Below the pieces are notes generated by a model. The model worked only from the letters and a program-made list of their open reading frames with translations, was not told the DNA's origin and did no database searches. A DNA stretch of 63,999 nucleotides, the filler included, from Jimgerdemannia flammicorona (taxonomy: Eukaryota), in NCBI GenBank assembly GCA_003990765.1. It is 3 parts of 3 records of this genome, joined end to end, with 100 filler letters (N's around TTAATTAATTAA, not from the genome) between each part and the next. Parts side by side here need not be neighbours in the genome. Positions count along the whole stretch, not along the records: positions 43,306 to 63,999 come from RBNJ01001607.1; 2 more parts are not named here. One strand, 5' to 3'. How positions within the stretch are numbered: position 1 is the stretch's first letter; every line of letters starts with the position of its first letter. Position numbers and translations under genes: made by a program. Positions 781-62,204 of this stretch are shown here, one piece after another.

Positions 781-849
781 TTAGGAAACGGCAAGCCCTC
801 TCCGGTGAGACTAATGGTACCAGGGAGGAAGACTCAGCAAATTCAGCAA

Positions 850-2260: not shown

Positions 2261-2314
2261 CCAACAAGAAGGGAAGGAGCCCCCATAAGAGAAGGCTGCT
2301 TCCCACCCACCCAA

Positions 2315-3534
2315 ATGAACCAAGAATTGTGCCTCGCCCTCACCTGGAGTCTGCACCACAGAAGCTTCAAGAAAGGAATCCAACCAGCCCACAAGTTGTT
2401 TATCCAAAGGAATTTTAAGAAATTCCAAGAAGGCAATGGCGAACTTTGGAGAGTAGAAGGAGAGCAGTATACCCAAGTTCCAAGAGAAGAAGAAATATTG
2501 AAGATCCTGATAACAAATCATGACCAAAATGCACACCGAGGAATTGGCACCACAATTGCAAGAATCAAGAAGCGATACTGGTGGCCCAAGATGAGAAAAC
2601 AAATTTCAATGCACATTCAACAATGTGATACCTGCCAAAGATACCGACAAAAGCCTACTGATAGAGTACCATTAATACTGATTGCAGCACCAGCTGGAGC
2701 CTTTCAAAGGCTGGGAATAGACATTATTGGACCCCTACCAGTAATTGGCTGAGGAAGACGCTACATCCTCACTATCGAAAACCACCTGACAAAATGGCCT
2801 GAAGCCTTTGCCATTGAGACTGCTGATGTCCAGACAATTATTGGGATCCTGTATGATGAAATTTTCAACTGCCATGGTGTGCCCAAGGAAATCATTACAG
2901 ACCAAGGCCAAGAATTCGTCAACCAAGCCATAAAGACCTTTGTGAGCAACTTCAAGATCAAGCTACGACCAACAACAGCCTACCACCCATAGGCAAATAG
3001 ACTCACTGAACGAATGAACCAGACCATCAAGCAAGGTCTCAGTAGAACCGGAGATCAACTAAACTGAGATATTTATCTACCGGCAATTCTGTTCAGCATC
3101 TGTACCTCTAAGGCAAGCACTACCCAACAGACCCCCTTCTATCTGGTGTATGGCCAAGAAGCACATGATCCTACTGAACCAGTCCAGCTAGATCTGTCAA
3201 AATGAGTCATAGAAGAGATCACCTAGTTATACAACATATGCCAGCAAGTACAAGGATTTATTGCCAAGGCACAAGAACGACAAAAGAGGTACTATAACTG
3301 CAAAGCTGACCTCGAACCCCTGCTCATTGGACAAAAGGTTCTGGTGTATCATACTATCATAGAAGGAAATTAGAGTACCAAGCTTGAACCAAAATGAGAA
3401 GGCCCCTATCTCATACACTAAGTATTCTTGAACCACACTTATCAACTCAAGACCTTGGATGGAGTTATACTCAAGACCAAGATACACTACAACTGCATAA
3501 GACTCTACTACTCAAGAGAAGCAAAACACATTTG
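2315..3534 (+). pseudogene. Gypsy integrase (HHCC zinc finger, DDE core, GPY/F tail)
   Basis: HDQNAH...CDTCQR, GIDIIGPLP, ITDQGQEF, TERMNQTIK, EGPYLI; no chromodomain visible. Confidence 0.93.
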
Positions 3535-3848
3535 AACAATCTTGTTCACTCTATCTGTATCGTCTCTGCTGGAGATACGACAGACGTTTTACTAGAAACT
3601 CAAGAAAGCCAACAATGTTGGAACCAGACTCAAGCCCATCCACATAACAGACATTGTTACTAAGAAATTGCCTCAGATTACAAGAAATACTATTTCCGAT
3701 GGGTTCAAACCCCCAGCCGTGACTATGGGAGCCCTCGCCCTAGACAAGGATGGCCAGACCTCATAAATGCACCAACATTCTACTCATCCCTAGAATTAAG
3801 ATTACCCAACTCTGTATAACCCTCACCGCCAAGGACAGCTCTTATTTT

Positions 3849-3860: not shown

Positions 3861-4001
3861 TGTGATGTCTACAATTGACCCTGTCCAAATTCAGAGTATC
3901 CTGTGACTACAAGATCAGATGACATTATGGTGCAATAACTGGTGACCAGCCCAATCCATCAAATGATTTTACCAAAAGAAGACAAGATGATCTAAGCCAA
4001 A

Positions 4002-4949
4002 ATGAAGACCATGTTATTTAAGGAACCATACTCCGCCTCAGGGATCGGCACCAAAGAACCAAGTACCCACCACACAATACCTCCCATTCGCCAATCCAAC
4101 CAGACCTCCCGCCGCTCTACCCCTTTGCCTGACCCAAAGACCCTGATCTTTGAAGCTATCAAGAAGGCCATCTGGCACCCAGATACTTCCGAACACTTGA
4201 ACTTCTACACCGAGGACCTTGGATACTTCATTAACTACTGGTATATAATGACCCAACAGCTCAAAGATACTACCGAATGAATGACCCTCTGGCATGACTA
4301 CAAAATCGGACACTGCCTTTGCAATGAGACTCAAGAAGATGACTGGGAAGACCTCATTATCGAAATATTAACCACCAGCCAGCTAATCAAGAGAACCCTC
4401 CGTGTCTACCAAATCTTCCACCATATTTCCTGGGCTATAGTACACCTACAAGGAGTGACTGCTGGAAGTCTCGCCTGCCTCTCAACTGAAGATGCAGACT
4501 GGATAGAATCAGAAGTAGCTAACTCTATTGGCAGTAACCAGGTTGCCATAGGAAGCCAACAAACCGAGCCTACTCAACCAGGCTTTCACACTACTCCACT
4601 CCGAGACAACCATCAAGGTCACCTAATGAGTCTCAAAGGACCACCCATTACTATTACAACACCTGTTGGAGCAACCCCAACTACTCACCACCCTGTCAGC
4701 TACAATTCACACCTCATCATTTGGGAACCAAATTAAGAAGTTCCAGAAGTCCCTACCAATACAGAAACTGAAGGATCTGAGGAAGAAGAAGAGGAGGAAC
4801 AAAGAATCTACCAATCCTCTGTCCGCCTTCAAGCAGTCCAAGGGTTGGAGAATGTTGTCAAAGATGATTGGCCACAATTCTACCCCCTCACCTCCTGGCC
4901 GGCACTCCTACTCTTTGAAGAATGGGATGAAGAAGTCACAACCCAGTAA
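4002..4949 (+). pseudogene. LTR(U3)-encoded ORF of unknown function, family B (~315 codons, two C>T-type stops)
   Basis: ORFs 4002-4280 and 4281-4736 plus an acidic tail to TAA 4947-4949 are one frame. Aligns by eye with 47516-48490 (WHDYKIGHCLCNE vs WQEYKIGNLLCQE; VYQIFHHISWAI vs IHQIFRHAPWSI). Confidence 0.8.
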
Positions 4950-5336
4950 GATGATTGAATCACTGATGAAGGGTACTTTACCATTCAGTGATCCCACATC
5001 CATTTCCTCAGTCCAGTCAGCCAATATTTGTCAGCAAGTCAGCAACACCCGTTTTCAGCGATACCACCCACAATATCCATATCCAGCACTAGCACTCATC
5101 TTATCCCAATTTGGCACAAACAATTGTCACACCCGTTTTCAGTGTTGCCACCCTCCACAACCATTTCTGGCAACAATCAGCATTCATGTCTGCTCATCCG
5201 AATCCAGCATTGCTATCCCCTACAACCCAATCTGTAGTAAACAATAGCCTGCACCTCGCATCATGCAAGCTAATAGCATAGCGAATGTTCGCCACAATGT
5301 AGTATACCTTAGCTGCATCCATAGCTAGCAAACTTG

Positions 5337-5375
5337 TATAAATAACCCATATTCTTAGAGTGAATAAACCTCAGT
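5337..5375 (+). promoter_or_regulatory. LTR core: TATA box, poly(A) signal, putative initiator
   Basis: TATAAATA 5337, AATAAA 5363, TCAGT 5371; same layout in other LTRs of the window. Confidence 0.7.
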
Positions 5376-8284
5376 CAACTGGTTTTGAGAAATAACCACT
5401 GCCTCCAAGAGACCAGATAAATTCTGAGAACAAGATAACTAGAGCAATGATCACTCGAGGTTTGAGTTAAAGAATTTTCTCTTGCCATGGAAAGAAAACA
5501 TTACCTGACTACTGCCATTCAACCACCATTCGAGACCCGAGACCCAGCCAAGGATTCAAAACCATGACTGCCATGCATTCAGACTGCCATTCAGACCGTG
5601 CATTCGACCACCATTTGAGATCCAAGACCCAGAAACCCAAGGATACCCAGCCAAAGGATACCAGACTGCCAAAGACCGACCCGCCAGCCTACATGAATGA
5701 CCGCCTAGAACCTTTCAAGTTAACAAGTCAAGATGGACGAGCAAGCCATCAACCTCCGTTTTCCTGACCTACTGCGCCATGAACCACTTAAAGCCAAGCC
5801 CATCATCACTGCATAAATTCAAGTTCACTGCTAAGTTAATTGCCACCAAGAATGCCCTTTTCCACTGAATATTGAGCTATTGAACAATCGAATGACCTCC
5901 CCATTGAACAATCAAAGTCCTGCTATTATCAATTATTGCATGTTTTGAACAACCCGATCATGTGACCACCGACCCGCAACCATCGCAAATATACTCAGTC
6001 ATATACCGCATGCTTTACCAAGTGACACATTGAGCCATGCCAGAAGCAACTAGGGATACAAACTGCACACCACAATATATTCAAAGAATACAACTATGAA
6101 TAATTCACATGACAACAAAAGACTAATAATAGCTTTGAAATATAGAAATCTTTATATATACAATCAATAGTATATCAAATAGTATAAAAGTCTTTACTTA
6201 TATAATAACTATATCTGATACATCTAACACATAACATTAATACTTAGGATATATTGGTAAGATGAGCCTCAAATATATGATAAGAAGTGGTATAGTAAAA
6301 GGATTGCCAGTATATATACATCTAGAGAATAGTTTTTGTGAGATATATATAGAAAACAAAGCCTCCTAGTAATTATTCAAAGAATGACTGAAGTGTGCCT
6401 TAGAGACTCTCAATCTAATCTATATAGATATATGTGGCCTGATATATACTCCATTATATTCTAGCAAAAGATACTTCTGATATTTATTAATGATCATACA
6501 TATGTATAAGATATATATATATATTTTCTATTGATAAAGAGTAAAGTCTTGAAGAAATTCAAAGAATTCAAAGCAATTACTGAGAATGAAACAAGATATA
6601 GAATATATACTATACACTTAGATAATAGATATAAATATATCAATAATATATTTAGAGAATTCCTGATGAAACATAGCATAAACCATCAAATGATAGCTTC
6701 TTATATATCTCAGCAAAACAGTATGGCTGAGTGATTTAACCATATGATTATTGAAATAACTTGAACAATGATTAATATAGCAACTAGACTAGGATATTCT
6801 TATTAGGCTGAAGCTATCAATATGGTAGTATATATCTACAACTGATGCATATCTTGATTGCTTAGTAAGGATTCTAGTAACAATAAGTATTTCAGAGATA
6901 ATAATCTTACCTTTAAAGAATTATAGAGTAGAATGAAGCCAGATGTATCATACTTACAAATATTCAGATATAAAGCATATATCTTTGACAAAAGTAACAC
7001 AATTTAGTATAAATTTGAGCTTAAGATAAGTAAGCATATATTTCTTAGATATTCTGATAAAGCATATAGACTATGAGATCTATACAAGTAGTATATAGTC
7101 ATTTTGCATAATATATAGTTTAGAGAAAAAGGCTTAGAGATCTATATAGAAGTATTGATTGAAATAAGCTCTATATTCCAGCCAGTATAAATGTAGTAAC
7201 CAGCACAACTGTCATCTATCTCTCCAGTGGTCAATTAGAACTATTTTCAACTACTATATGTATCTAAGTCTGAGCCAGAGTTGGCTGAGCTAAGAATAAT
7301 AGAGATCAAGGATGAAGATGACAGTGAGTCTAATGATAAGAGATTTTTTACAAGGAGTAAGTAAAAGTACTCCAATGTTTGCTAAGAAACTCATTCTGAT
7401 TTAGGAAATTATTAGGATATACCAGTAAGCTCTAAATAATAACAACATTAAGACTACATGAGCTATACCAAAGCATATAAATGTACATATATTGCAACAT
7501 CTTCCAGTAAGCTAAGAATATACAATAAAGCTAAGGAGGAAGAAGGCTCAGCGGGAGCCAAGGGAGTGAACCCAGAGCCAGTGTCAAAGCAAACAGAAGA
7601 TATGTGGAAAGGTATATATAAGGGGGATGAACAAAGAACATAACCAAAAATGCATCAACCATTTATTGCCACATAAAAACATAGTCCTTATATACAAAAT
7701 ATGATGTCCCAAAAGGGAGGACACACCACAACTCGGGGCAAACCGAATTAGGAACCACATGACCACTGGAGATAGGTGGAGATAAAGGGGGAGCCAATCC
7801 CAGTTGTAGGATAAAAATCACAAACAAACACAAATAAAACAAATCCAAATTAAGATTAAAAAACATCCTTGCCCCCTCCAGAGTCTCACACTTGCTCTGG
7901 GGTCTCAGCCTTACTCCACTCCCCTCTGCTACCTTTGGCCCCTCACTTTACTTGGGCTCACTGCAGCTTGCTCCATTTCAGCCTCACCTCTCGCTCATAC
8001 TCACTCCTCCGGGGTCTGTGGATGTTTTTTAATCTCGATTTAGATTTGTTTTGTTGGTATTTATTTGTGATTTTTATCCTGCAACTGGGATTAGCTCCCC
8101 CTTTATCTCTGCTTATCTCTGATGGTCATGTGGTTCCTAATTCGGTTCGCCCCGAGTTGTAGTGCATTCTCCCTTTTGGGACATCATATTTTGTATATAA
8201 GGACCGTGTTTTTATGTGGCAATAAATGGCTGATGTATTTTCGGTTATATTCTTTATTTATCCTCCTTATACACACCTTTCCAC

Positions 8285-15244: not shown

Positions 15245-16808
15245 TGTCACATAGTGGTCACTAAGCCCTTCAAATATGTCAAATTCTCTTTAAGGTATAT
15301 CTCTTAGATTAACTCAAGTTTGTTATAAGTAAGTTCTTATTAAAGTGCCTTCCCAAGGTCTTATAGTCCTCAAACTTCTTATCTTTAACTGTCTTATTAT
15401 CTCTTAGATTGCTTACAAGAAAGTGTGTATATTGCACTGAGTTGACTGACTTTATTTCAGAGGAAATAAGAGGAGTATTTATACAATATATAATTCAATA
15501 GTTGCTAAGATATAAAGCTAAATATAAATTCCAATAACTAAAATAAAATGCCAGGACTGGAAAAACTGCTAAATTCTAGGGTTGGTACTAATGATTGTAT
15601 AGATTCAGGATGCTGGTATAATTTGGTGTCACATCAGAATACCAATGCTGGTATTATTCAGTATTATATCAAAATACTAGTGCTGGAACAATTCTGTGTC
15701 ACCTAAAAATTAGAGCAGAATGTTCAAGACCATAGGGGCTTTATCATCAGAGGTCAGGATATCTTCAAAGGAGATGAGGTCCACAAATGTCTCATCTGTC
15801 TCATTGTTGTCATTATATAGGTCATGTATCTTGCATATATCATACATTTTGCATACTTCGATGTTATGCAGAATGACATCATCACTGATGATGTCATCAT
15901 GTTCAGTGGCAGTAGTGAGGACAAGGAGATCTGGAGCTCTTCAGTCTATGAGGTTCTCTTCCACAAAATAGGAGACAAATGTGGGGTCTTGGGGAGGTCT
16001 AACCTAGATACTTGGGTCTTGGAATACTGAGATCAATCCTTATAGGAATTGGTCTGAGTTATTCTAGAGGATAGGATGCCAGAAGTCTTCTACTTCATCA
16101 CTATTGAGAGTGATAGTAGACTGGGCTTCTGTAGCCACTCTGGCTTCTAGTATATTGATACAGCAGGATGACAGGTCTCTGAAATCTGAGACTCTAATAT
16201 ACTCCAAGTTAGAGATCAACCATAGTGTATGCCTGAAGATCTGATAAATCTTCTTAGCTATCCTTATTTTATATATATCCATGGGAGTGGTATCTTATAG
16301 TTCTTGAGTACTGGCCTGTGGAAACTCCCGACAGAGGAGGTTTTCTATTTTATACTCCTACCATATTTAGAGGTATTCAGTAGCAATGGTGATTCTTGTT
16401 TCCATTTCATAGTAGTAGAGGATATAATGATAAGAGTTACTGATACCTAGGTTGACACTAGGATTCCTTCTTGAGTGGGTCCTCATGGCTCTTCTGATGT
16501 CTTGAAACATCCTTTCTTTGACTGAGATACCTTGGTGGTTCCTTGATCTTGAGGTTTGGCAGACAGCAGGCATTTCATTTATAGTGAGTCTTTGAGCTAT
16601 TTTGGGATTGGTGGGTCTTGTTGGTTACTGTTACTGTAGTTCCTTGATCCTTCTTTTATATTCCTCAGGATACTTGTACTATGGTCACAATGACTTACAG
16701 TTAGTCATCATTACTCATCTTGTCTGCTGTATGATCTTCTTGTACTCTGATCTGGTAAAGAAAGACTGTCTCTTGTACTTATGTCATCATTCTGGAGTCA
16801 CTGTTACA
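15245..16808 (-). mobile_element. Solo LTR of family A with decayed ORF (16573-15710)
   Basis: TGTCAC...GTTACA bounded by ATAC on both sides (15241-44, 16809-12); colinear with 47078-48607. Confidence 0.93.
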
Positions 16809-22497: not shown

Positions 22498-23878
22498 CAA
22501 TAGCAGCAACTCAATAAGACCCACCAATCCCAAAATAGCTCAAAGACTTACCATAAATAAAATACCTGCTACTTACCAAACCTCAAGGTCAAGGAACCAC
22601 CAAGGTATCTCAGTTGAAGAAAGGATGTTCTAAGACATCAGAAGAGCTATGAGGACTTATACAAGAAGGATTTCTAGCCTCTATCTGGGTACTGCAGATC
22701 CTTATTACTTTATCCTCTACTGCCATGAAATGGAAACAAGGATCACTATTGCTACCAAATATCTCCAAATGTGGCAGAAGTACAAAATAGGAAATCTTCT
22801 CTATCAGAAGTTTCCACAAACCAGCCCTCAAGAGTTACAAGATGCTACTCCTATAGATATATATGAAACAAGGATAGCTAAGAAGATTCATCAGATCTTC
22901 AGACATACATTATGGTCAATCCCTAACTTAGAGTATGTTAGAGTCTCAGATTTCAAAGAACTGTCAGCCTGCTATATCAATATACTAGAAGCCAGAGTAG
23001 CTACAGAAGTCTAGTCTACCATTACCCTCAATAGTGATAAAGTAGAAGACTTCTGGCATCCTATCCTCCAGGACAACCCAGATCAATTCCTGCAAGGATT
23101 AATCTTAGTATTCTAAGACCCAAGCATCCAGGTTAGATCTCTCTAAGATTCTACATTTGTTCCTTATTTTGTAGAAGAGAATCTTATAGATTGGAGAGCC
23201 TCTGATTTCCCTGCCACTGAACATGATGATGTTATCAGTGATGACATCACCTATACAACATGCACAAAGTATGCAAAATGTGTAACCTATATGATGAGAC
23301 TGAAACATTTGTGGACCTCATCTCCTTTGAGGACAGTGATGATAAGGATAAAGCCTCCATGGTCCTGAATATTCTACTCTAAGTCCCTTAGTTATACTGA
23401 ATTATACCAACATTCTTTTCCTATATAACAGCTATTTCTCTACCAGTATTCTGATCTTGTGACTCAGAATTATTCCAGTACTATTTTTCAGTATTACTGA
23501 AATTATACCAGTATCCTAAACCTGTACAACCATCTGTGCTGACCCTGGAACTTGGCAGTTTTTTATATTCCAGCATTTTTATTTGGTTATTGAAATTTAT
23601 ATTTAGCTTTATATCTTAGCAATCATTGAATTATATTTTGTATAAATACCCTTCTTATTTCCTTTAAAATAAAGTCGGTTCTGGTTCACTTATATATAAT
23701 TTCTTATAAGCAATCTAAGAGATAACAAGATAGTTTAAAGATAAGAAGTTTGAGAACTATAAAACCTTGGGAAGACACTCCAATAAGAACTTGCTTATAA
23801 CAAACTTGAGTTAGTCTAAGAGATATATCTTGAAGAAAATCTGATATATTTGAAGAACTCAGCGACTACTATGTAATA
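22498..23878 (+). mobile_element. Family A LTR, 5' end replaced by the PLE; decayed ORF ~22560-23382
   Basis: ORF 22649-23014 matches the LTR protein; end ...ACTATGTAATA (decayed GTGACA) followed by ACAT, with no PBS. Confidence 0.88.
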
Positions 23879-24096: not shown

Positions 24097-27000
24097 TATA
24101 ACAGTGACCTCAGAATAGTAATATCATCACAGGAGATAGCCTTTCCTTACAAGCCACTAAATCAGAGCATAAGAAGATTATATGGTATAACTCACTCAGG
24201 CTACAAGATAAGCAATAATGACCAACCATAAGTCATCATGACCACAAGATAGATATCTCAAGAAATATAAAAGAAAGACTAAGGAACTACAGTAGCAGTA
24301 ACTTAAATAAGACTCACAAAATCCCAAAATAGTTTAAAGACTCACTATAAAAAAAATGCCTACTGCCTACCAAATCTTAAGGTTCAGAAATTACTAAGAC
24401 TTCTTAGTTCAAGAAAGGATATTTCAAGACATCACAAGAGTTATAAGGACCTGTACCAGAAGAACTCCTAGTCTCAACCTGGATACTGGTGACTTTTACT
24501 ACTTTATTCTCTACTATTATAAAATAGAAACAAGGATCACTATTACTACCAAATACCTCTAGATATAGTAGGAATATGAAATAGAAAATCTCCTCTGTCT
24601 GGAATTCCCTCAGATCAGTCTCCAAGAGATATAAAATACTACTTCTATAGATGTATATAAATTGAGAATGGTCAAAAGATCTATCAGATCTTCAGATATG
24701 TATGTATCTTAGTAAATCTCCAACTTGGAGTATACTAGAGTCTCAGACTTCAAAGAATTATCAGTCTACTACATAGATATACTGGAGGCCATAGTGGTCA
24801 CAGAAGTCTAATCCACTATTACTCTCAAAAGTAATAAGGTAGAAGAGTTCTGGAATCTCATCCTCAAGGACAACTCAGATCAATTCCTGTAAGGATTAAT
24901 CTCAGTATTCTAAAGCCCCAGTATCCAGATTCAATCTCCTCAAGATCTCACCTTTGTCTCCTACTTTGTAGAGGAAAATTTTATAGATTAGAGAGTCTCT
25001 GATCTCCTTACTCTCTCTATCACCACTACTGAATATGATGATATTGCTTTGCTAATTGATATGTACAATATATGCAAAATATATAAAATAGATGAAATAT
25101 TTACTGACCTTATCTCCTTCAAGGATATTCTGATCTCTAGTCTTGATGATAGTGATGAAGATTAAGTCTCTAGAATTCTGAATATTCTGCTCTGAGTTCT
25201 TTATATAACTTTGAAATTCTTCTAGTATTCTGATCTTATATAACTATCAGAAATTATTTCAGCATTCTGATCTTATACAACCAATTGTATAAATACTTGA
25301 ATTTGTACTTACAACTGAAGTTTTCTGTATTTAAGTATCTTATTTATTTGGTTATTGAAATTTATATTTAGTTTTATAACTTAGCAACCATTGAATTATA
25401 TTTTGTATAAATACTTCTCTCATTTCTTTTGAAATAAAGTCAGTAGTCAAGTATTGAAAACACTCAAACATTCAAGTTCTCAACTACTCAAGAGTACAGA
25501 AGTTCTAGTTCTCTATTCAATTCCAAGCAAGCAAATCTAAGAGACAATAGAACAGTTTAAAGATAAGAAGTTTGAGAACTATAAGATCTTGGAAAGGTAC
25601 TCCAATAGAACTTACTTATAAGAAACTTATAGTTGGTCTAAGAGATATACCTTAAAGAGAATCTGATATACTTGGAGAACTTGGTGCTCACTATGTGACA
25701 ATTTTGTACCCATTGACTAATGATACTATTAGGATTCTTTACTTTCAAACTAAAAAATAAATAACTACCATAATAACTATCCTGACTATAAGAGTCATCT
25801 CCTGCAAGAATTCAAGATAAGATAAAAATATATCTCTCTACATTCTATAGATTTACTACTAAAGAGTCAATTCTGACCTTTATTGAAGACTTTGAATAAT
25901 TTACTGCTATATGAGCTCTCAATGTTGAAGCACAATTAGCCTTTCTATCTATCAGTCTTAGAGGACCTATCAGAGGCAAGTTCAATATAGCTACTATTGC
26001 TGATACTGGTATAGCCAAACTTACCAATATGAAGAACTTCCTCAGAACTATATACTATACTTAAGAGATCAAGCAAGCTCTCAAAGATCAACTTAACATT
26101 ATCTGCCAAAGACTCAATAAAGACTCCAACTTATTCTATACCTAAATCTGCAATCAAATTATCTTGACTAGCTATGATGATACTCTCAAGGAACAAATAG
26201 CTGATTCAATCTTCCTAAAAGAAGTCTACTATGAAATTGCCCTAGCAATCCAGTCTATCCCAGCTGCTCTGACCCTTGATCAGAAAGTGGTCTTTATACA
26301 GAAATATTAGACTACCAGATACTCTGCTGAATACTCAATAGAAAGAATAACTAGCATCAAGATGGAGCCACCAAAGCCAACCAGTATCATACCCACTACA
26401 GTCATCAATAGATAACTATTCCTATCTACCCCCAAGATGACCAAAGCTGATCCAGTGGAGGAACTTGCCCAGCAGTTTGTCAAGATAACTGCATACCTTG
26501 ATGATATTGTTAGAGAAGTATGAAGTATCAACAGGAGACCAGTACAGAAGTTTATAGCTACTATAGAGGAATACACTATTATATGTTTTAAGTGTAAAGA
26601 AGAAGGCCACTATACAAAGAATTATATGACCAAAACAAGATATAGAGCCCAAACAAGTGATGCTACTAGAACTAGAGAACAACTCAATGCTGTAGTTATC
26701 AAGGAGATTAGTGATACTGATAATGAAGAATACTATGAGGAGTCTGAATTCTACCCTATTACTGAAGGTACTAGAACCTGGTCCAAGCCCTATGACAAGA
26801 AGAACAATAGCAAGCCAGTTGGAAGACCAAAAAAGACCTCAACCATTATCATTCAAAGTAAGACTCAACTTAAGGAGATTGATTAAGATATGAAGTTAGA
26901 TGAAGCTATCTATCAAATTATTGAAGGTACTACTTCAGTCTCAGAAGAAAGTGAAAGCAAGAAAGAATAGAAGCTGTGCAAGACTAAGATCCACTAGTAT

Positions 27001-37911: not shown

Positions 37912-40771
37912 TATGACAAACCAGTAGAAAAATATACCAAGTTACTATCTAAATTAGTTACTATAATTAGCCATATACTATATCAAGAGTACTAGACAAC
38001 CAGAACTGCTCTACTGTGCCAACTTGTATAAATAACTCAGATAGCCAAAGAAGGAAACATTATGGGACATTGAAGGTCTTCTCAAGATATTGAAAGTCTC
38101 TTTGAGACATTGAATATCTTCTTGAGATATTAAAGGTCTTACCTCTTATAAATAGTAACCTATAGTTAGCCATATAGTAACTAGATAGCAACTAACTTTT
38201 ATAAAATACTTCAGAGATAAGAGTGAATAAATCTCAGTCTAAAAAGTCAAAGAAAAGCAGAAAGCTTTCTTTTCTACTTCAGTTCTCTTTTTAATATAAA
38301 GCTTTGAAGAAAAATCTACTACTTAAGAAAAAGACTATCTTTTGAGAAGTCTATCATGTTTTGATTTGCTTACCAGATAAGTCTGAAGAATTTGAGAAGT
38401 TCATCTTATCACAAAGCCAGTCTATTTTAATACAACTTTGTAGTAAAGCTAGTCTCTAATATGACTTTGCTAAGAGAAGAATTTATAATTCAAGTTATTT
38501 TCCAGAAAGTCTACTATAGGAATCTTGCCACAAAGTCAGTCTATCTAATACAACTTTGCAGTAGAGCCAGTCTTCAATATAACTCCATATAAACAAAGTC
38601 AGTCTTTGATATAACTTTGCTAAAAATCTGTACTATCTGAGTTATCAAGTTATTCAAGTTATTATTCAAGAAGCCTACTAATTTAGAAGAATCTATACTA
38701 AGTTGAGTTATCTATCAAATTGAGTTATCAATCTGCTACCTAATAAGAAAGTCTGTTAAGATTATCATATTAATAAATTGCATACTTTTTAAAAATACAA
38801 TTATCATACAAAAATTATATAAGGAACTCATTACACTATACAGAGATCATTATTCTATATAAAGACTATTATATAGAAATTATATAAGAAACCTGCTCAC
38901 ACTATATACTGTTACGTAGTGGTCACTGAGTTCTTCAAATATACCAGATTCTCTTCAAGGTGTATCTCTTAGACTAACTCAAGTTTATTATAAGCAAGTT
39001 CTTATTGGAGTACCTTTCCAAGGTCTTATAGTCCTCAAACTTCTTATCTTTAAACTGTCTTATTATCTCTTAGATTACTTGCAAGAAAGTATATATATTG
39101 CACTGAGTTGACTAAATGGACTAAGTGGACTGAGTGGACTGAGTGGACTGAGTAGACTGACTTTATTTCAGAGGAAATAAGAGGAGTATTTATACAAAAT
39201 ATAATTCAATGGTTGCTAAGATATAAAGCTAAATATAAATTCCAATAACTAAAATGAAATACCAGAACAGGGAAAACTGCTAAGTTCTAGGGTTGGTACT
39301 GATAGTTGTATAGGTTCAGAATGCTAGTATAATTCAGTATTACATCAAAATGCCAGTGCTGAAACAATTCAGTATTACATCAAAATGCCAGTGCTGGAAC
39401 AATTCAGTGTTATATCAAAATGCTGGTGCTGGAACAATTCAGTGTAACCAAGAGACTTAGAGTAGAATATTCAAGACCATAGGGACTTCATCCTCATCAG
39501 AGGTCAGGATGTCTTCAAAGGAGATGAGGTCTGCAAATGTCTCATCTGTCTTGTTATTATCATTGCATAGGTCATACATTTCACATTCTTTGCATATGTC
39601 ATATGGGATGATGACATCACTGATGATATCATCACATTTGGCAGTGGTGATAGCAGGAACAAAGAGATCTAGAGCTCTCCAGTCTATGAGGTTCTCTTCC
39701 ACAAAATAGGGAACAAATGTGGGGTCTTGGAGAGATCTAACCTGGATACTTGGGCCTTGGAATACTGAGATCAATCCTTGCAGGAATTGATCTGGGTTGT
39801 CCTGAAGAATGGAATGCCAGAAGTTTTCTATTTCATCATTATTGAGGGTGATAGTGGACTGGGCTTCTGTAGCCACTCTTGCTTATAGTGCATTGATATA
39901 GTGAGATGACAGATCTCTGAAATCTAAGACTCTAACATACTCCAAGTTGGGGATCAACCATGGTATATGCCTGAAGATCTGATAGATCTTCTTAGTTATC
40001 CTTATTTCACATATATCCATGGGAGTGATATCTTGTAGCTCTTGAGTGCTGGCCTGTGGGAACTCCTGATAGAGAAGATTTCCTATTTCATACTCCTGCT
40101 ATATTTGGAGGCATTCGGTAGTAATGGTGATTCTTGTTTCTATTTCACAGTAGTAGAGAATATAATAATAAGGGTCTTCAGTACCCAGGTTGATACTAGA
40201 AGTCCTTCTTGAGCAGGTCCTCATGACTCTTCTGATGTCTTGGAATATTCTTTCTTCGACTGAGATGCTTTGGTGGTTCTTTGACCTTGAGGTTTGGTGA
40301 GCAGCAGGCATTTTGTTTATAGTAAGTCTTTGAGCTATTTTGGGATTAGTGGGTCTTATTGATTACTGCTACTGTGGTTCCTTGATCCTTCTTTTATATT
40401 TCTCAAGATACTCAACTGTGGTCACAATGACTCATAGTTGGTCATCATTGCTCATCTCATATGCCATATAATCTTCTTATGCTCTGATCTGGTAACTTAC
40501 AAGGAAAGACTGTCTCCTGTACTGATGTCATCATTCTGGGGTCACTGTTATAATATATAAATCACTGCTTACACTCAAGAACTTATCCTAATAAGGAAAT
40601 CACCAGAATTAACTGCCATATTCAGATTTGACTATTATACCACTAAATATTAATAAGGATATTAAGAATCTTAGAATATTTTATACTTTTTAATAAAGTA
40701 ACTAAGAACTCAAGTCAAACTACATCAACCCTCAACCTTGTAATTTACCTCTATTGAGCTGGTACATTATA
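37912..40771 (+). mobile_element. Solo LTR family C (~1.2 kb net) containing a nested family A solo LTR
   Basis: TATGACA...CATTATA flanked by GTAT/GTAT (37908-11, 40772-75); core TATA 38200, AATAAA 38226, TCAGT 38234. Confidence 0.8.
38910..40552 (-). mobile_element. Solo LTR family A with decayed ORF (40311-39457)
   Basis: TGTTAC...GTTATA; flanks ATAC and ATAT (TSD with one C>T); ORFs 39457-39876 and 40099-40311 match the LTR protein. Confidence 0.9.
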
Positions 40772-43305: not shown

Positions 43306-43320
43306 AACAATCTGACCACC

Positions 43321-44290: not shown

Positions 44291-46208
44291 GACGCCACAA
44301 CTTCAAACTACAAGGTGAAAAGGACCCACTCAACTCTAGTGACCCTGGACCAAAGATCACCCACATCAACAAACTACAACTCAAGAAATTGGCCAAGAAA
44401 TGCCCTCTCTTCGCCATCTCCATCCAACCATCCAGAGGAGAACCCAAGAACTCTGAGGAAGACTTTTCCAAAGTTGACAGCCATGTCAGACCACTACTCC
44501 AGAAGGTCCAAGACACATTTCCAAACTGAACTACAGAACCACCTGCACCTGTCATTATTAATGACCAAGAAGAATACAAGGTTGAACAAATCCTCAACAA
44601 AAATAGCCACAAGAACCATCCAAATGGTACAACAACACCAGAACAAATTGGAAGGCCCCGACGAGGACGTCGAAAGCTAAGAAGGGGAGAGTTGTAAGTG
44701 CACAATCTCCAAGCCACTAAAATCGCATGGTATCCTCAGAACTAATTTGGAAACCATATGTGAGACTACAAAACAAGTTACTGAAGAGATCATCTGGTTA
44801 CACAAATACGCCAGCAAGCACGAGAACCCACTGCCAAGATACAAGAATACTAGAAGAAGTACTACAACCATAAGACTGACTCTGAACCGCTATAGCTTGT
44901 TTGGTGTACTGTACTATTACAAAGAAGCCGAAAGTACCAAACTCAAATCAAGACAAGAAGAACCCTATCTTACCCACTAAAAGGTTCACGAACTGCACTT
45001 ATCAACTCAAGACCAAGATATACCATGACTATACAAGACCTCATTACTTAGCAGAAGCAAAATGCATTTGAACAACTCTGTTCGCTTTATCTGTGTCACC
45101 TCCGTTGGAGAGTGACAGACACTTCATCTGAACTCAAGAAAGCCGACAACATCGAAACCAATCTCAAGCCATCCATGTGATAGATATTACTACTAGAAAT
45201 TGCCTCGGATTACAGAAAATATCATTTCTGAGAGGTTCGAACCCCCAGCTGCGACATTGGGAGCCCTCGCCCTAGACGAGAATGGCCAGTCCTCGCAAAT
45301 GCACCAGCAGACCAAAAAAAAAAGAGAACCAAGACCTGTTATCCTTGTACAACCACCGCCACCAAGGACAGCCTTAATCTTATAAGAGATAGACATGATG
45401 ATATCTTGAAAACTGATGATATCAGAAAAACTGCTCAGACTTTGCCAGTGATGATGTCATCAATAGTGATGTCATCAAGGACTAACCAGACAGTGCCTAA
45501 ATCTATAAATAGTCTAGCAGTTATAATATAGTTAGATTAGCCTTATACAACGTGACTGTGAACTGACTCAGCAGTCAGACGATCTCTTGACATATCAGAT
45601 CACACTTGTACTAAGTGACTGCATTCCAACTCAACAAGGCACTTAGTGCTACATCTATATTCAGCATAGTCCAGATAGCCCCTCACTAGTATAAATACCC
45701 CCTCTCCCAGACCTCAGAATCTCAGACTCGAACAGACTCGAACAGACTCGAACAGACTTGAACAATCCAAACACAACTCCTGAGTACTTTCCCACAATAT
45801 CCCTTCACACAAATACTCCTAGTATAGCAATATCATGAATAGCAAATTAACCTATTCCATAACCCACAAACCACTCTTAAGTAAATCCACTCTCTGTTAT
45901 GTCCTACTCCTAACCCTGTCACGAAATTTCCTAATTGGGTATTGTCTGCAGTGATATGCCAATTCAACTAAGCTGGTCTTAGTTTCTTGAACTTCCTGAA
46001 ATACGGAAAATCCTGAACATCCAGAACTAGTCCAGAAAAGGACTTTGGTTGAGACGTCAACCCAATCTTGAAATCAATAAGCATAGAGGATGTACTCCAT
46101 ATGAAATTGATCTTGACCATAAGAAAACGGTCTTCCAGAATATCCAGAACTTCCAGAAAACCCTTCTAGAACTACATAACGGTCACCCTAAAAAGTAACC
46201 CTCTTACA

Positions 46209-47021
46209 TCTTCTGTAGTAGCTGCAAATCTCTGCACTGGTCTCCTGTTGGTACTTCGGACTTCTCTAACAACATCACCAAGGTGTGCAGTCATCTTGGC
46301 GAACTGCTTGGCAAGTTCTTCCACTGGGTCAGCTTTGGCTGTCTTGGGGTTAGGTGGGATTGGTTGTCTGTTTACAACTGTGGTAGGTATGATACTAGTT
46401 GGCTTTGATGGCTCCATCTTGATGCCAGTTATTTTCTCCATTGAGTGTTTGGCAGGGTGTCTGGCAGTCCAATATCTCTGTGCAAAGACCACTTTCTGAT
46501 CAAGGGTCAGTGCAGCTGGGGTAGACTGAATTGCTAGGGCAATTTTAGGGTGAACTCCTTTGAGGAAGGTTGAATCTGCTATTTGTTCCTTGAGGTGATC
46601 ATCATAGCCAGCCAGGACAATCTGGTGGCAAATTCAGGTATAGAATAAGTTGGGATCTTTACTAAGACCCTGGCAGATAGTATTGAGTTGATCCTTGAGA
46701 GCTTGCTTGATCTCTTCAGTATAATATGTTGTTCTGAGGAAGGCCTTCATGTTGACAAGTTTGGCTGCACCAGCATCAGCAATGGTGGCTGCATTGAACT
46801 TGTCTCTGGCAGGTCCTCTGAGGCTGACCAGTAGAAGGGCCAATTGAGAATCTACACCAAGGGCTCATACAGCGGCAAATTGTTCAAAGTCTTCAATGAA
46901 GGTCAGGATTGACTCTTCAGTTGTATATCCATAGAATGTGGGGGGGCGCATTTCTATCTTGTCTTGAATTCTAGCAGGGGTGACTCTTGTAGTCAGAGTA
47001 GTTGTTGTGGGGGTTGTTCAT
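46209..47021 (-). pseudogene. gag: Gypsy gag (capsid region), truncated by the 43306-46208 element
   Basis: MRPPTFYG..FIEDFEQF..SLRGPARDKF..ICQG..TFLKGVHP..DPVEELAKQFAKM. Confidence 0.88.
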
Positions 47022-47060
47022 TTTTCAGCTTGAAAGTGAGGGATTTGTCTTGAATCACCA

Positions 47061-47074
47061 GCCAATAGGCACCA
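47061..47074 (-). promoter_or_regulatory. Primer binding site
   Basis: TGGTGCCTATTGGC 3 nt inside the LTR end; complementary to a tRNA ending ...GGCACCA (identity not determined). Confidence 0.7.
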
Positions 47075-47515
47075 AGTTGTCACATAGTGGTCGCTGAGTC
47101 CTTCAAATATGCCAGATTCTCTTCAAGGTGTATCTCTTAGACTAACTCAAGTTGTTATAAGCAAGTTCTTATTGGAGTGCCTTCCAAAGGTCTTATAGTC
47201 CTCAAACTTCTTATCTTTAACTGTCTTGTTATCTCTTAGATTGCTTGCAAGGAAGTGTGTGTAAGTGAAACTGGAACTTGACTGACTTTATTTCAGAGGA
47301 AATAAGAGAGGTATTTATACAAAATATAATTCAATAGTTGCTAAGATATAAAGCTAAATATAAATTTCAATAACTAAAACTATCTGGCATTATTTAGTAT
47401 CATATCAAAATGCCAGTACTGGAACAATTTTGCATCACCTCAGAATACCGGTACTGCCATTATCCAGTATTACATGAGAATCCTGATGACGGCATTATCC
47501 AGTGTAACAAAGAAC

Positions 47516-48490
47516 TTAGAGCAGAAAGTTCAGGACCATGGGAGCTTCATCATCATCATCACTGAAGGAGATGAGGTCCGCGAATTCATCATGCAGGCCG
47601 CACGTCTTGCATACTTTATTGTTATGTGTTTTGTGTTCTTCGTGTGCTTTGGGTATGTCATGCGGGATGACATCATCGCCGATGATGTCATCATGTTTGG
47701 CAGGGAAATCGGGAATAAGATCTGGAGCTCTCCAGTCTATGAGGTTCTCTTCCACAAAATAGGGGACAAATGTGGGGTCTTGGGGAGATCTAACCTGGAT
47801 GCTTGGGCCTTGGAATACTGAGATCAATCCTTGCAGGAATTGGTCTGGGTTGTCCTGAAGGACAGGGTGCCAGAAGTCTTCTACTTCTTCGCTGTTGAGG
47901 GTGATGGTGGACTGGGTTTCTGTGGCTACCCTGGCTTTTAGTGCATTGATATGGCAGGATGACAGGTCTCTGAAGTCTGAGACTCTAACATACTCCAAGT
48001 TGGGGATCGACCATGGTGCATGCCTGAAGATCTGATGGATCTTCTTTGCTGTTCTTGTCTCACATAGGTCCATGAGAGTGGCATCTTGTAGCTCTTGAGG
48101 GCTGGCCTGTGGGAACTCCTGGCAGAGGAGGTTTCCTATTTTGTACTCCTGCCACATTTGGAGGCATTCGGTGGCAATGGTGATCCTTGTTTCTATTTCA
48201 TAGTGGTAGAGAATGAAGTGATAGGGGTCTGCAGTACCCAGGTTGACACTAGGAGTCCTTCTTGAGTGGGTCCTCATAGCTCTTCTGATATCTTGGAACA
48301 TCCTTTCCTCGACTGAGATATCTTGATGTTTCCTTGACCTTGAGGTTTGGTGGGCAGCAGGCATTTTGTTTGTGGTAAGTCTTTGAGCTATTTTTGGGAT
48401 TGGTGGTTCTTGTTGGTTGCTGCTACTGCAGTTCCTTGATCTTTCTTTTATATTCTTCAGGATGCTTGTGCTGTGGTCACAATGACTCAC
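47516..48490 (-). CDS. Uninterrupted LTR(U3)-encoded protein of unknown function (324 codons open from GTG; 282 aa from the ATG at 48364)
   Basis: Open frame lies wholly inside the LTR, upstream of its TATA (~47319); same frame in four other copies; diverged homolog at 4002-4949; VCKxC motif and acidic tail. Confidence 0.85.
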   Translation of the reverse strand: MSHCDHSTSILKNIKERSRNCSSSNQQEPPIPKIAQRLTTNKMPAAHQTSRSRKHQDISVEERMFQDIRRAMRTHSRRTPSVNLGTADPYHFILYHYEIETRITIATECLQMWQEYKIGNLLCQEFPQASPQELQDATLMDLCETRTAKKIHQIFRHAPWSIPNLEYVRVSDFRDLSSCHINALKARVATETQSTITLNSEEVEDFWHPVLQDNPDQFLQGLISVFQGPSIQVRSPQDPTFVPYFVEENLIDWRAPDLIPDFPAKHDDIIGDDVIPHDIPKAHEEHKTHNNKVCKTCGLHDEFADLISFSDDDDEAPMVLNFLL

Positions 48491-50054
48491 AGTTGGTCAT
48501 TATTGCTCATCTCATATGCCATATGATCTTCTTGTACTCTGATCTGGTGGCTTGTAAAGAAAGGCTGTCTTCTGTGCTGATGTCATCATTCTGGGGTCAC
48601 TGTTACAGTATTCATTAAAATGCTAAAGTAAAATAAATAGTAAAAGTATAAAAGAGATAAGCAAAGTGATACAAAATCTGAAAAAATACTGATAAATACT
48701 TCTCTACTCACTTGTAAAACTTTAATAACTTCTCTTAATTTCTCCCACTTACTCTCTTTAATTACCATATCTCACATTTCTTTATCTGCAGCAGTTGTAA
48801 AATCCAGTATCAGAATTATATTTGAATAAATTAATATTAGTCAATAAAGTCTAAAACTATTCTGTAATACTATTATTAGTAATCTACCATAGCAAGCTTT
48901 AGTGTATGTTCAATTATTGCAAATGTTGAGTTCCAACATATACTGATATTCAAAATAAGTTTTTTTCAAGAAAGATTAATTGTCTTATATTATTCAGTAA
49001 GTTTTTTTTTGCTACTATAGTATTGATCAAATTGCAACAATTAATTTACACAACTTTGAAACACTATTAGAGCTCTTCTTGGTAATTTTACTCTAATCAC
49101 CAAATAGTTACATGAGATAATCTCAAGCAGTAAGATTCAGAACATGAGTCTGACACTATACATAGTTATTGTTAGCACTAAAGATTATATTTTCTTATTA
49201 AAGTTTGATTGCCAAAATGCAGAGAAATGTGAGATTATTGAAGGCATTATCTGTTGTAATAGCTAATATCTATATTTCAAAGTTTTGATATATAAAATTA
49301 GATAGAAAGCAGTTAATAATTAAAAGTAAAAAGTATATTTTTTCTTTTTATTCTCTTTTAAAATAAAAAACTCTCACACTTTAGTTATAATACTAAGATT
49401 CTGAATATAGTTTAAGAATACTTCTACAAATTTTGTTCAGAATGAGAACCCTCAAGTTTACAAAGTCAAGAGTGAGGGTTTGAAGCTACTAGTTAATATC
49501 AATCTAATGTCCAGTAATATCAAGAAATGAAATAACATTAAGTGATATCTACAGTTCAATTATTAATGAAATTTTATCTATCATACTCTATAGTAAAATT
49601 TGAAATATAGTTAGCAATCATACTTGATTCACCAATATCTCTAATATTACTAATAATATCTGAATACTTTTATCTAAAGTTTTTGATAGAGATTATTATG
49701 CTCTTTTTTATAGATCTCTGTAATATCATTATTAATAGTATCAGCACTGAAGTATATATATAAATCAGGCTTGATAAGACCAAAGAGACTTCATTTTTTT
49801 TTTTTTTTTTTTTTTAATAGACTCATAGTCCCACAGATTTTTATTGGAAGGGAACCTAGACTATATAGGCCAAAACCCTCTCCTACCACCCACCGAATAA
49901 TATCCCCCCATTAACCTAGACTACTAAAATATCCAGCAGTCCCACTGCTCTAGCTACACCTGTCAAACATCAGCTATGTTGACCCCCATGACATAGACCA
50001 GACTTGTCTGCTCACCAGGACTGGATTATTATTTACACACAAGAGCACACCTAT

Positions 50055-62196: not shown

Positions 62197-62204
62197 CAAC
62201 CCGA

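Follow-up and report, generated by a model that had tools for sequence, protein, structure and literature searches.

Retrotransposon LTRs usually count as promoter and terminator modules without coding content, and they are masked ahead of gene annotation. A repeated 1530-nt unit in a 63,999-nt stretch of Jimgerdemannia flammicorona DNA (the window, along which all positions are counted) raises the question of whether an LTR can itself hold a gene. An initial annotation of this DNA had described the unit as a Gypsy LTR with a conserved open reading frame (ORF) inside U3, shared by two diverged lineages. The question has three parts, namely whether the unit is an LTR, whether the ORF is a selected gene, and what its product might do; the features on which the answers rest are collected in Table 1.

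Table 1. Position and character of the features described in the window.
Feature	Position	Strand	Description
pol of element B	178..3766	+	dUTPase, protease, RT, integrase with GPY/F tail; decayed
Putative 3' LTR of element B	3861..6028	+	single copy in the window; TATAAATA at ~5340, then AATAAAC CTCAGTCAA
ORF B, homologue of the LTR A ORF	4002..4949	+	stops at 4278-4280 and 4737-4739
LTR copy A1	15245..16808	-	solo LTR; duplication GTAT/GTAT; ORF decayed
LTR copy A2	22498..23874	+	5'-truncated; ORF decayed
LTR copy A3	24099..25700	+	5' LTR, then homologous PBS and leader; most decayed copy
LTR copy A4	38910..40552	-	solo LTR; duplication ATAT/GTAT; ORF decayed
LTR E	45396..46208	+	813 nt; TG..ACA ends; TATA at ~45689; short U3 without ORF
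gag-like frame	46209..46864	-	one in-frame stop; cut at 46209 by insertion of element E
PBS-like sequence and leader	47040..47077	-	AC TTGGTGCCTATTGGCTGG...; adjoins LTR A5; homologous to 25701 onward
LTR copy A5	47078..48607	-	1530 nt; 5' LTR of a truncated element; sense ends TGTAAC...GTGACA
AATAAA, then TCAGTC	47280..47292	-	poly(A) signal and putative initiator
Main LTR promoter TATA box TATAAATA	47312..47319	-	downstream of the ORF; marks the U3 end; conserved in 5/5 A copies
LTR-encoded ORF	47516..48364	-	conserved ATG at 48364; 282 aa and stop codon
27-nt inverted repeat (GATGACATCATCGGCGATGATGTCATC type)	47666..47692		within the codons for the acidic segment DDIIGDDVI; self-match
Candidate internal promoter TATA ATATAAAAG	48445..48453	-	~80 nt upstream of the ATG; predicted from sequence

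Identity of the 1.5-kb repeat

The evidence identifies the 1.5-kb repeat as an LTR belonging to a Ty3/Gypsy-type retrotransposon. Five copies, which make up family A in the window, were found by blastn, and on the plus strand the copy A5 starts with TGTCAC and ends with TTACA; its sense strand is the minus strand, a point absent from the initial annotation. The target-site duplications of the two solo copies match at all four bases in A1 and at three of four in A4. Both A5 and A3 are followed by a TGG-containing leader (at 47077 and below, and after 25700, respectively), and the two leaders are 82% identical over 830 nt. Parts of the 64-kb stretch occur in 20 of the 21 listed public sequencing runs, mostly soil metagenomes, and in an alignment of contigs from four public runs, contigs diverge exactly at 47077/47078 and at 48607, the two ends of A5. 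The TGT...ACA ends, the repetition and the solo copies with 4-bp duplications, on which the LTR claim had been based, were all recovered, and the contig breaks agree with them. The further claim that a PBS and gag follow both A5 and the copy ending at 25700 stands for the homologous PBS-like leader; the gag at A5 is a gag-like frame (46864-46209), so labelled by position and motif pattern only, which had no Pfam match in a profile scan.

The TATAAATA motif recurs in LTR B and in L001, a metagenome contig, and in both of these it is accompanied by an AATAAAC CTCAGTCAA arrangement like that of LTR A. From the AATAAA/TCAGTC arrangement the R region of LTR A would be very short.

Although the window holds no complete element bearing both LTRs, let alone one with the ORF in each, and although the pol of lineage A lies outside it, it is extremely improbable that the unit is something other than an LTR, with the frame being an ordinary internal ORF (ORF0 or ORF3) or open by chance. 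The entire ORF is included in both solo copies that have target duplications, the PBS and leader come immediately after two copies, contigs from other genomic locations stop matching at the two ends of the unit, and the chance of a given frame staying open for 324 codons is 6e-9, as calculated from the stop-triplet frequency of the window.

The copies A4 and A5 were also considered as the LTR pair of a single element, and this pairing was rejected: the interval between them consists of a plus-strand element and an assembly gap. They are 82% identical, about as any other pair of A copies, with CpG counts of 3 and 16, respectively. The differences among the five A copies are those of post-insertion C>T decay.

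An open reading frame within U3

It had been claimed that more than half of the LTR is one open frame upstream of the TATA box, and this was borne out. The A5 frame is open on the minus strand from 48490 to 47516, that is for 324 codons from a GTG or 64% of the LTR, with TATAAATA downstream of it; since the TATA box comes only after the frame, the ORF is in U3. The ATG at 48364 is conserved in four of the five A copies, and the candidate TATA ATATAAAAG is present in all four A copies that hold the region, as well as at the very start of L001. The ORF is open in A5 only; in A1 to A4 and in B it is a pseudogene. With respect to the family member P0001 the A5 ORF shows 28 differences, 17 of which are accounted for by one C>T or G>A change each, and about ten arginines were lost to changes of this kind. 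The A5 copy was thus probably damaged by deamination-type changes, and its protein may be non-functional.

Evidence for selection

On the contig L001 an intact homologue of 323 aa is found, and after it comes the same tail with TATA and AATAAA. Comparison of the A5 ORF with L001 by the Nei-Gojobori method over 215 gap-free codons gave a pS of 0.68 and a pN of 0.23 (omega 0.156), a value that rests on this one DNA pair, in which synonymous sites are nearly saturated; pairs of A copies are excluded from it for their post-insertion C>T decay, and A against B for 26% identity and saturated synonymous sites. The other five frames of the A5/L001 pair gave dN/dS values of 0.40 to 1.65, and none of 300 column shuffles of the alignment reached the observed omega (minimum 0.46). 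Mismatch at the three codon positions was 0.30, 0.19 and 0.45, an order that persists when CpG, TpG and CpA sites are left out. Several further open homologues of the ORF exist, and a profile search of the window in six frames placed all six significant matches inside LTR units (the five A copies and B). A dN/dS of 0.16 that is far from 1 and specific to one frame agrees, together with the codon-position pattern and the further open homologues, with the earlier proposal of a selected accessory protein in U3. These comparisons of sequence firmly indicate that the U3 of LTR A holds a genuine sense-oriented protein-coding gene of ~280-340 codons under purifying selection, and we consider it very likely that a real, selected gene is embedded in the LTR.

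LTRs are capable of capturing foreign sequence, which leaves room for the ORF to have been picked up from the host or a foreign source as a passenger with no role for the element, or its conservation might stem from cis-acting DNA signals in U3. In keeping with such a view, a palindromic TGATGTCATCA-type motif is found both in the coding region and in the ORF-less LTR E, and the E lineage does without the ORF. We regard this origin of the conservation as very unlikely: constraint on a DNA signal alone would not give an excess of synonymous over non-synonymous change confined to one frame, the ORF is open in many diverged copies, and its position and orientation are the same in lineages whose other LTR DNA no longer aligns.

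Related LTR lineages and the protein family

The selected gene has a homologue in a second lineage, represented by element B. The pol of this element gave Pfam matches to dUTPase (2.5e-18), RVT_1, Integrase_H2C2 (3.5e-17) and rve and has a gag-asp protease; its dUTPase, at 178-876, lies upstream of the protease, so that the order is dUTPase-PR-RT-IN. The description of both lineages as dUTPase-bearing therefore holds for B, the pol of lineage A being absent from the window. LTR B is preceded by a purine-rich tract; its start, which we infer to lie at ~3861, is accurate to ~2 nt, and its end is ambiguous, falling at ~6028 or, if similarity to the A terminus is taken as the guide, at ~5619. The integrase frame ends ~95 nt ahead of LTR B, which leaves no room for an env gene, and ORF B starts 141 nt into the LTR. 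The homologous ORF proposed at 4002-4949 aligns significantly with ORF A, at 26% identity over 208 aa (E 5e-18 by blastp of the pair, E 5e-15 by tblastn against the window), and contains two stops. Outside the ORF the LTR DNA is no longer alignable between the lineages, whereas the position and orientation of the ORF are kept.

Element E, whose interior occupies 43306-45395, is a B-related, internally deleted dUTPase element, and public-run contigs break at 46208, the end of its LTR. Since E is a relative of B with no ORF in its LTR, the gene is not needed in cis by every relative. A 30-nt segment resembling the 27-nt inverted repeat of the A5 ORF is found in LTR E.

Relatives of the protein were sought in several collections. 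A profile search of 1.84 billion (1.84e9) representative proteins gave 12 matches at E<=1e-3, all without a name and without any precomputed Pfam domain; a repeat protein among them is spurious, and none of the 11 credible matches exceeds 342 aa. All nine matches of a word-index search came from metagenome contigs of 600-1625 nt. Scanning of metagenomes with P0001 yielded one locus, L001; with alignments of the family, a metagenome scan gave 162 pattern matches and a viral-contig scan 156, with no relatives in either. Pfam-A held no family at E<=10 for the window ORF and none at E<=5 for any of the four members scanned, the best E in a PDB sequence search with the ORF was 0.67, and in the ESM Atlas the ORF scored at best 0.84, against unnamed eukaryotic clusters and below the useful range (a dUTPase-PR query scored 0.83). 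A search with part of the integrase gave no match at E<=1e-10 among 367 candidates. By their alignments the LTR ORFs clearly appear to form a small unannotated family spread across diverged LTR lineages, namely A, B, L001/P0015 and P0004/5.

Predicted structure of the protein

The model of the protein comprises a predicted helical core domain (residues 15-160; pLDDT 91, pTM 0.83), a conserved but poorly modelled stretch (161-222; net charge -8) and an acidic, disordered C-terminal tail (223-282; pLDDT <50, net charge -10). Foldseek searches of PDB and BFVD returned nothing at E<=1e-3 for either the full or the domain model, and the wide VIA-align search gave no Z>=5 for the core model. The modelled core domain is a candidate new fold. 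The top structural rows are helix-turn-helix DNA-binding domains, all below the noise level of the tool (Z<5): SopB (Z 4.3 and 4.1), VirB (3.6), sigma-F region 4 (3.5), ParB (3.4) and KorB (2.9). The best row (Z 4.3, rmsd 4.3, 77 residues aligned) is under the tool's noise guide for helical models. The ParB, SopB, VirB and KorB rows cover model residues ~54-139, with 77-79 residues aligned at an rmsd of 4.1-4.3; they are the best for the core, yet with Z 2.8-4.3 and identity of 8-14% they offer a lead and not membership. Because the structural matches are below the noise level, DNA binding is only a lead.

No hydrophobic segment was found in the A5 protein (maximum Kyte-Doolittle 19-residue mean 0.52), and the same maximum was 0.47-0.74 in all four members tested, with no type II transmembrane anchor. 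These values, and the position of the ORF inside the LTR and not in the interval between pol and the 3' LTR, uphold the view that the protein has no transmembrane segment and is not env-like.

Comparison with known accessory genes

The sag gene of MMTV is a sense ORF of ~300 codons that lies wholly in the U3 of a 1.3-1.5-kb LTR and is the last cistron of a genome with the dUTPase upstream of the protease. The ORF described here has the same LTR position, in U3 and in sense orientation, and its element family likewise has the dUTPase upstream of the protease. Unlike Sag, a type II membrane glycoprotein, the LTR ORF protein has no hydrophobic segment, and it comes from an element without env that is Ty3/Gypsy-like (gag-asp protease, Integrase_H2C2, GPY/F tail); no sequence or fold match to Sag was found in Pfam, PDB or BFVD (the last at E<=1e-3). 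Foamy virus tas/bet and HIV/SIV nef resemble the present gene in lying downstream of pol and running into or within U3. Here, in contrast, the whole gene is inside the LTR and is therefore carried by the 5' LTR and by solo LTRs as well, and searches of PDB and BFVD found no similarity to foamy Tas, HTLV Tax or nef-type proteins.

The ORF3s of the bdelloid elements Vesta, Juno and TelKA and the ORFs of plant Athila/Tat/Retand elements are internal, lying between pol and the 3' LTR, and usually have a separate message; the ORF3s described in the available part of that source are env-like, GDSL, DEDDy, coiled-coil or TM proteins (PMC5408684). Such genes are alike to ours as extra lineage-specific ORFs after pol in dUTPase-bearing Gypsy-like elements, but the LTR ORF family lies inside the LTR and matches none of the protein types described in that part (PMC5408684). 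Excerpts of a further source contain dUTPase-bearing basidiomycete elements and, in the legend of a fungal Gypsy figure, an "add. ORF" of unknown function (PMC2864245); judging by that legend, the LTR ORF may overlap with the latter. In the available portions of the literature on LTR-encoded proteins, such proteins are those of retroviruses only (MMTV sag and similar) and this family is undescribed (PMC2864245, PMC5408684, PMC10787394, PMC6875170, bioRxiv 10.64898/2026.05.04.722472).

Proposed expression and function

The overall explanation that we favour, and consider likely, is that of an LTR-embedded selected gene which is the last cistron of the element and probably encodes a regulatory protein. 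In the genomic RNA (R-U5-gag-pol-U3-R) the gene would directly follow pol and the polypurine tract, and it would probably be expressed via a subgenomic mRNA ending at the poly(A) site in R. Such an mRNA could arise by splicing or from the conserved TATAAAAG ~80 nt upstream of the ATG; use of the internal-promoter route rather than splicing is plausible, at somewhat less than an even chance. With an internal promoter, each LTR would be a gene complete in itself, and this would apply to solo LTRs too. None of the 21 listed runs is recorded as RNA; in two runs guessed to be RNA, contigs cover the LTR and not the gag part and extend into unrelated flanks, which makes them uninformative on transcription.

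The protein would most likely act in the nucleus as a regulator or adaptor in the expression of its own element, transactivator-like in combining a helix-turn-helix-like helical domain with an acidic activation-type tail. Foamy Tas, a DNA-binding transactivator whose activation domain is acidic, is expressed from an internal promoter, and its features provide the working model for the LTR ORF protein. The cues that fit the role suggested earlier, that of a transactivator or anti-silencing protein, are both weak, namely the acidic tail and the sub-threshold resemblance of the model to helix-turn-helix domains, and that the protein is specifically a transcriptional activator is possible, if doubtful.

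The conserved low-confidence stretch and the acidic tail with its repeated hydrophobic cores are also consistent with a selected gene that antagonises host defence (small-RNA or chromatin silencing, through binding of SUMO or chromatin factors) instead of activating transcription. Residues 161-222 would then be a contact surface, and the acidic-hydrophobic repeats DDIIGDDVI and DLISFSDDDDE, which we take to be of the SUMO-interaction type, would serve in this or other partner binding. The copies lie in heavily C>T-mutated DNA, as from cytosine methylation or RIP, and may thus have been subject to host silencing. These motifs are short and compositional, however, and Pfam, PDB and BFVD searches found no similarity to known suppressors; a role against host defence is unlikely.

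A post-transcriptional factor acting in nuclear export or packaging of unspliced element RNA, like retroviral Rev or Rem or Cer1 CERV, is decidedly unlikely. Accessory export factors do exist in LTR elements, Cer1 CERV among them in the available part of the source (PMC10309623), and A-type members share a conserved N-terminus that is short and basic (QTSRSRKHQ) as well as a conserved, leucine-rich C-terminal end (MVLNFLL), but the patch of basic residues is weak and lacks conservation in lineages B, P0004 and P0009, and structural comparison found no RNA-binding fold.

The transactivator-like regulatory protein can be given a bolder form, which we consider quite doubtful. Each LTR, solo ones included, would be a self-contained gene with its own TATA, an ORF for a 280-340-aa protein that belongs to a structurally new family, and the LTR poly(A) signal, and would supply a trans-acting activator or anti-silencing regulator that serves the whole family, including the ORF-less element E.

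Significance for retrotransposon biology

With a conserved gene lying wholly inside U3, Ty3/Gypsy-type elements would acquire a new class of accessory gene, and the retrovirus-like "complex" genome organisation would gain a counterpart outside vertebrate retroviruses. The LTR ORF family, with neither annotation nor a detectable structural relative, is in addition a source of a candidate new fold. If true, self-contained LTR genes would be the Metaviridae counterpart of the regulatory genes of complex retroviruses, and thousands of "dead" solo LTRs could still supply functional transposon protein. Coding solo LTRs would bear on the regulation of transposon families in trans and on the upkeep of non-autonomous elements.

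LTR family A and the open frame in its U3

A blastn search with 47078-48607 identified five copies of this unit in the window (A1 to A5, the last being the query), all of which read TGTAACAGTGAC...CACTATGTGACA on the sense strand. Because the long frame is read from the minus strand, the sense strand is minus for A5, A4 and A1 and plus for A2 and A3; on the plus strand, A5 starts with TGTCAC and ends with TTACA. Duplications of 4 bp surround A1 (GTAT/GTAT) and A4 (ATAT/GTAT), shorter than the typical 5 bp of Gypsy elements of chromovirus type, and a homologous leader (AC TTGGTGCCTATTGGCTGG...) lies directly 3' of both A5 and A3 (82% identity over 830 nt; 47037-46209 versus 25741-26570). The initial annotation was thus right to call the unit an LTR. 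Its claim of a primer binding site and gag after A5 and at 25700 holds for the homologous leader, while gag is so named from position and the usual motif pattern, as Pfam gave no match for the frame at 46864-46209. Contigs from four public runs (region 45500-49000) leave the window sequence for unrelated DNA at 47077/47078 and 48607, which is what further insertions of this LTR would produce; the runs containing part of the stretch are in the main soil metagenomes. A1 and A4, both solo LTRs, share a target context, GTAT followed by GTATATAG..., which suggests either that the element prefers TATA-like target sites or that an old segmental duplication took place.

As had been proposed, a single open frame fills more than half of the A5 LTR (975 of 1530 nt) and, since it ends upstream of the TATA box, lies within U3; the R region is probably very short. 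With stop triplets making up 5.7% of window trinucleotides, the odds of a given frame staying open for 324 codons are 6e-9. The ATG at 48364 (AAACAAAATGCC), which would give a product of 282 aa, is kept in four of the five A copies and is ATA in A2. In all four runs, sequencing depth falls sharply over 47606-47722, where the ORF codes for its variable acidic portion and where contigs carry approximately 100-130 nt of other sequence; the length of this segment is hypervariable from one genomic copy to another.

Coordinates of the features discussed (A, B and E denote LTR family A, the element at the left end and its internally deleted relative)
Feature	Position	Strand	Remarks
LTR A1	15245-16808	-	blastn
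LTR A2	22498-23874	+	blastn; lacks first ~190 nt
LTR A3	24099-25700	+	blastn
LTR A4	38910-40550	-	blastn; 2 more bases by alignment
LTR A5	47078-48607	-	blastn query
Long frame (A5)	48490-47516	-	324 codons from GTG
Candidate internal promoter ATATAAAAG	48453-48445	-	~80 nt upstream of ATG
TATA box TATAAATA	47319-47312	-	kept in five A copies
AATAAA	47292-47287	-	kept in five A copies
TCAGTC	47285-47280	-	kept in five A copies
gag-like frame (A5 leader)	46864-46209	-	one internal stop
dUTPase (B)	178-876	+	Pfam, 2.5e-18
RVT_1 (B)	1083-1727	+	Pfam
Integrase_H2C2 (B)	2222-2749	+	Pfam
rve (B)	2753-2989	+	Pfam
Integrase tail (B)	to ~3766	+	GPY/F-type module
Purine-rich tract, then TGTGATG (B)	~3861	+	
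ORF B	4002-4949	+	stops at 4278 and 4737
TATAAATA (B)	~5340	+	then AATAAAC CTCAGTCAA
dUTPase (E)	from 43306	+	directly after N run
Protease (E)	43819-44076	+	
Integrase tail (E)	44769-45309	+	70% identical to B 3198-3777
LTR E	45396-46208	+	813 nt; TG..ACA ends; TATA ~45689
Palindromes, LTR A5	48607-48570	-	near LTR start
Palindromes, LTR of B	3861-3960	+	near LTR start
Palindromes, LTR E	45396-45480	+	near LTR start
Palindrome in ORF	47666-47692		acidic-tail coding part
Pol_BBD fragment	18873-19109	+	Copia-type; E 1.2e-7
RVT_1, third family	32276-32743; 55845-56551		
Frame, third family	52503-53723	+	407 aa; no Pfam match
Frame, third family	28411-29544	-	378 aa; no Pfam match

Homologues and selection

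The Pfam scan covered 150 of the 188 window ORFs of at least 75 aa. The A5 product matches 4146-4754 (+) in element B at 26% identity over 208 aa (tblastn within the window, E 5.5e-15) and the product of ORF B directly at E 5e-18 (blastp), so that the homologue announced at 4002-4949 is real. When the six translated frames of the window were searched with a family profile, six hits were significant, namely the five A copies and B, with two more rows at E>1. The layout of B is the same as that of A. Its LTR occurs once in the window and has an ambiguous end, at ~5619 (match to the A terminus) or ~6028 (GTGACA). Of the two dUTPase-bearing lineages in the initial annotation, B does carry the domain; for A, whose pol is outside the window, dUTPase stands as a claim.

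A word-index search of 5.8e9 proteins returned three hits among 591 candidates, with 69-83% identity, on metagenome contigs and without Pfam domains. A profile search of 1.84e9 representatives of any length yielded 12 hits with E<=1e-3, none of them a fused or longer form; five reached <=1e-30, and one (P0013) was a spurious repeat protein. Further lineages emerged from these hits (P0004/P0005, the B-like P0007/P0008, and the distant P0009-12 and P0014), and W.(E/D)Y.IG..L, then A(K/R)(K/R).(H/Y)Q.F.H.P, then LS are common to all. Repeating the word-index search with the 15-row alignment as query produced nine hits, all on metagenome contigs of 600-1625 nt.

One metagenome contig (L001, 1345 nt) carries an intact 323-aa homologue (55% identity in the multiple alignment) followed by the same TATAAATA and AATAAAC CTCAGTCAA tail as A and B, and so is also an LTR. 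The ORF is the only long LTR stretch still alignable between A5 and L001. Over 215 gap-free codons pS was 0.68, pN 0.23 and omega 0.156, a rough value as it comes from one pair with synonymous sites nearly saturated. The other five reading frames gave omega of 0.40-1.65, none of 300 column shuffles reached the observed value (minimum 0.46), and mismatch per codon position was 0.30/0.19/0.45, or 0.23/0.14/0.33 without sites in CpG/TpG/CpA context. The frame-specific pattern in this alignment is nevertheless clear, in agreement with the selected protein inferred beforehand. The U3 of this LTR holds a selected gene in sense orientation, and the ORF, a real and well-supported feature, is an LTR-retroelement accessory gene lying wholly inside U3.

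Properties of the protein

The protein family is unannotated and without a structural match. Pfam gave no family at E<=10 for the A5 product and none at E<=5 in all four members scanned, the best PDB sequence match had E 0.67, Foldseek searches of PDB and BFVD returned no match at E<=1e-3, and VIA-align against 48,161 chains gave no Z>=5. AlphaFold2 with the 15-row alignment reached a mean pLDDT of 70 (mostly >90 for residues 15-160, mixed for 161-222, <50 for 223-282); the core alone (pLDDT 91, pTM 0.83) is predicted to form seven helices, one of 37 residues. The top VIA-align rows, all below the noise guide of the tool, are helix-turn-helix DNA-binding domains (SopB, Z 4.3 and 4.1; VirB, 3.6; sigma-F region 4, 3.5; ParB, 3.4; KorB, 2.9 and 2.8), a likeness of the modelled core that may be taken only as a lead. 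Net charge is -1 for residues 1-160, -8 for 161-222 and -10 for 223-282, and the tail contains acidic-hydrophobic repeats (DDIIGDDVI, DLISFSDDDDE, ..VLNFLL). No hydrophobic segment was found in four members (max KD19 0.47-0.74), matching the earlier statement that a transmembrane segment is lacking.

An ORF-less relative, decay and neighbouring elements

Between A4 and A5 lies element E, which is related to B, runs on the plus strand and is internally deleted, lacking RT, RNase H and the integrase core. It interrupts the gag of the A5 element at 46209, and contigs break at 46208. The U3 of LTR E is just ~300 nt and contains no ORF, which suggests that the protein is dispensable or supplied in trans. 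A 30-nt piece of LTR E matches the A ORF segment that encodes the acidic DDIIGDDVI (87% to A4, E 1e-4), weak evidence that this LTR may be a deletion derivative or may share a palindromic cis-element.

The other four A copies show 51-75% identity to the A5 product, each split over two frames (tblastn, window) and hence with at least one frameshift apiece. CpG count is 16 in A5 and 0-3 in the remaining copies, whose private changes are mainly C>T and G>A, outside CpG (in CpA, CpC and CpT) as well as within it. Compared with the closest database protein (P0001), A5 has 28 differences over 245 aligned residues, of which 17, including 10 arginine losses, are accounted for by a single C>T or G>A in A5; by this comparison A5 appears not pristine but open yet scarred. 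Given these changes and the frameshifts and stops elsewhere, the window contains one open, scarred copy and five pseudogenes. Across the window, changes in repeat copies are strongly skewed towards C>T and G>A in every dinucleotide context, beyond CpG, which fits methylation-driven or RIP-like decay; base composition is strand-asymmetric (G 14621, C 11656).

A third retroelement family is present in three copies, 70-89% alike (28118-33900, 52122-57990 and 60442-63999), with long frames lacking Pfam matches upstream of RT on both strands. A Ty1/Copia remnant lies between A1 and A2. The N runs at 21554-21653 and 43206-43305 each consist of two 44-N blocks 12 bases apart, and adjoining element structures are unreliable.

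Possible function and expression

The sag gene of mouse mammary tumour virus (MMTV), an ORF of ~320 aa in U3, is the closest analogue by genome position; by proposed mechanism the closest would be foamy virus tas/bet and nef, retroviral genes running into U3. A search of the literature, Repbase and Dfam lying outside it, was dominated by hits on MMTV sag and turned up no case of a Ty3/Gypsy element with a protein gene embedded in its LTR. Bdelloid rotifers have dUTPase-bearing Gypsy-like elements with additional ORFs (PMC5408684) and dUTPase is known in basidiomycete elements (PMC2864245, which names an "add. ORF" without assigned function only in the legend to a figure). The ORF3s described there (PMC5408684, PMC2864245) are internal and of other families, whereas the A ORF is inside the LTR.

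The helical core with its weak helix-turn-helix likeness, together with the acidic tail, places first a nuclear regulator of transactivator type, a tentative reading of the models. A host-defence or chromatin adaptor ranks second and seems unlikely, and an RNA-handling factor, third, is more doubtful still. Palindromes of TGATGACATCA / TGATGTCATCA type recur close to the 5' end in each of the three LTR types and within the stretch of the ORF that codes for the acidic tail; they may have been CRE-like TGACGTCA sites before CpG decay and are possible cis-elements.

The ORF would be the last cistron of the genomic RNA, after pol and the polypurine tract, a position that would require a subgenomic message ending at the R poly(A) site. 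This could be made by splicing from the leader or from an internal promoter, for which the candidate ATATAAAAG is found in the four A copies that extend over this region and again where L001 begins; the AAGACTYACYACAAACAAA stretch ahead of the ATG is likewise conserved. If such an internal promoter is used, 5' LTRs and solo LTRs could express the protein.
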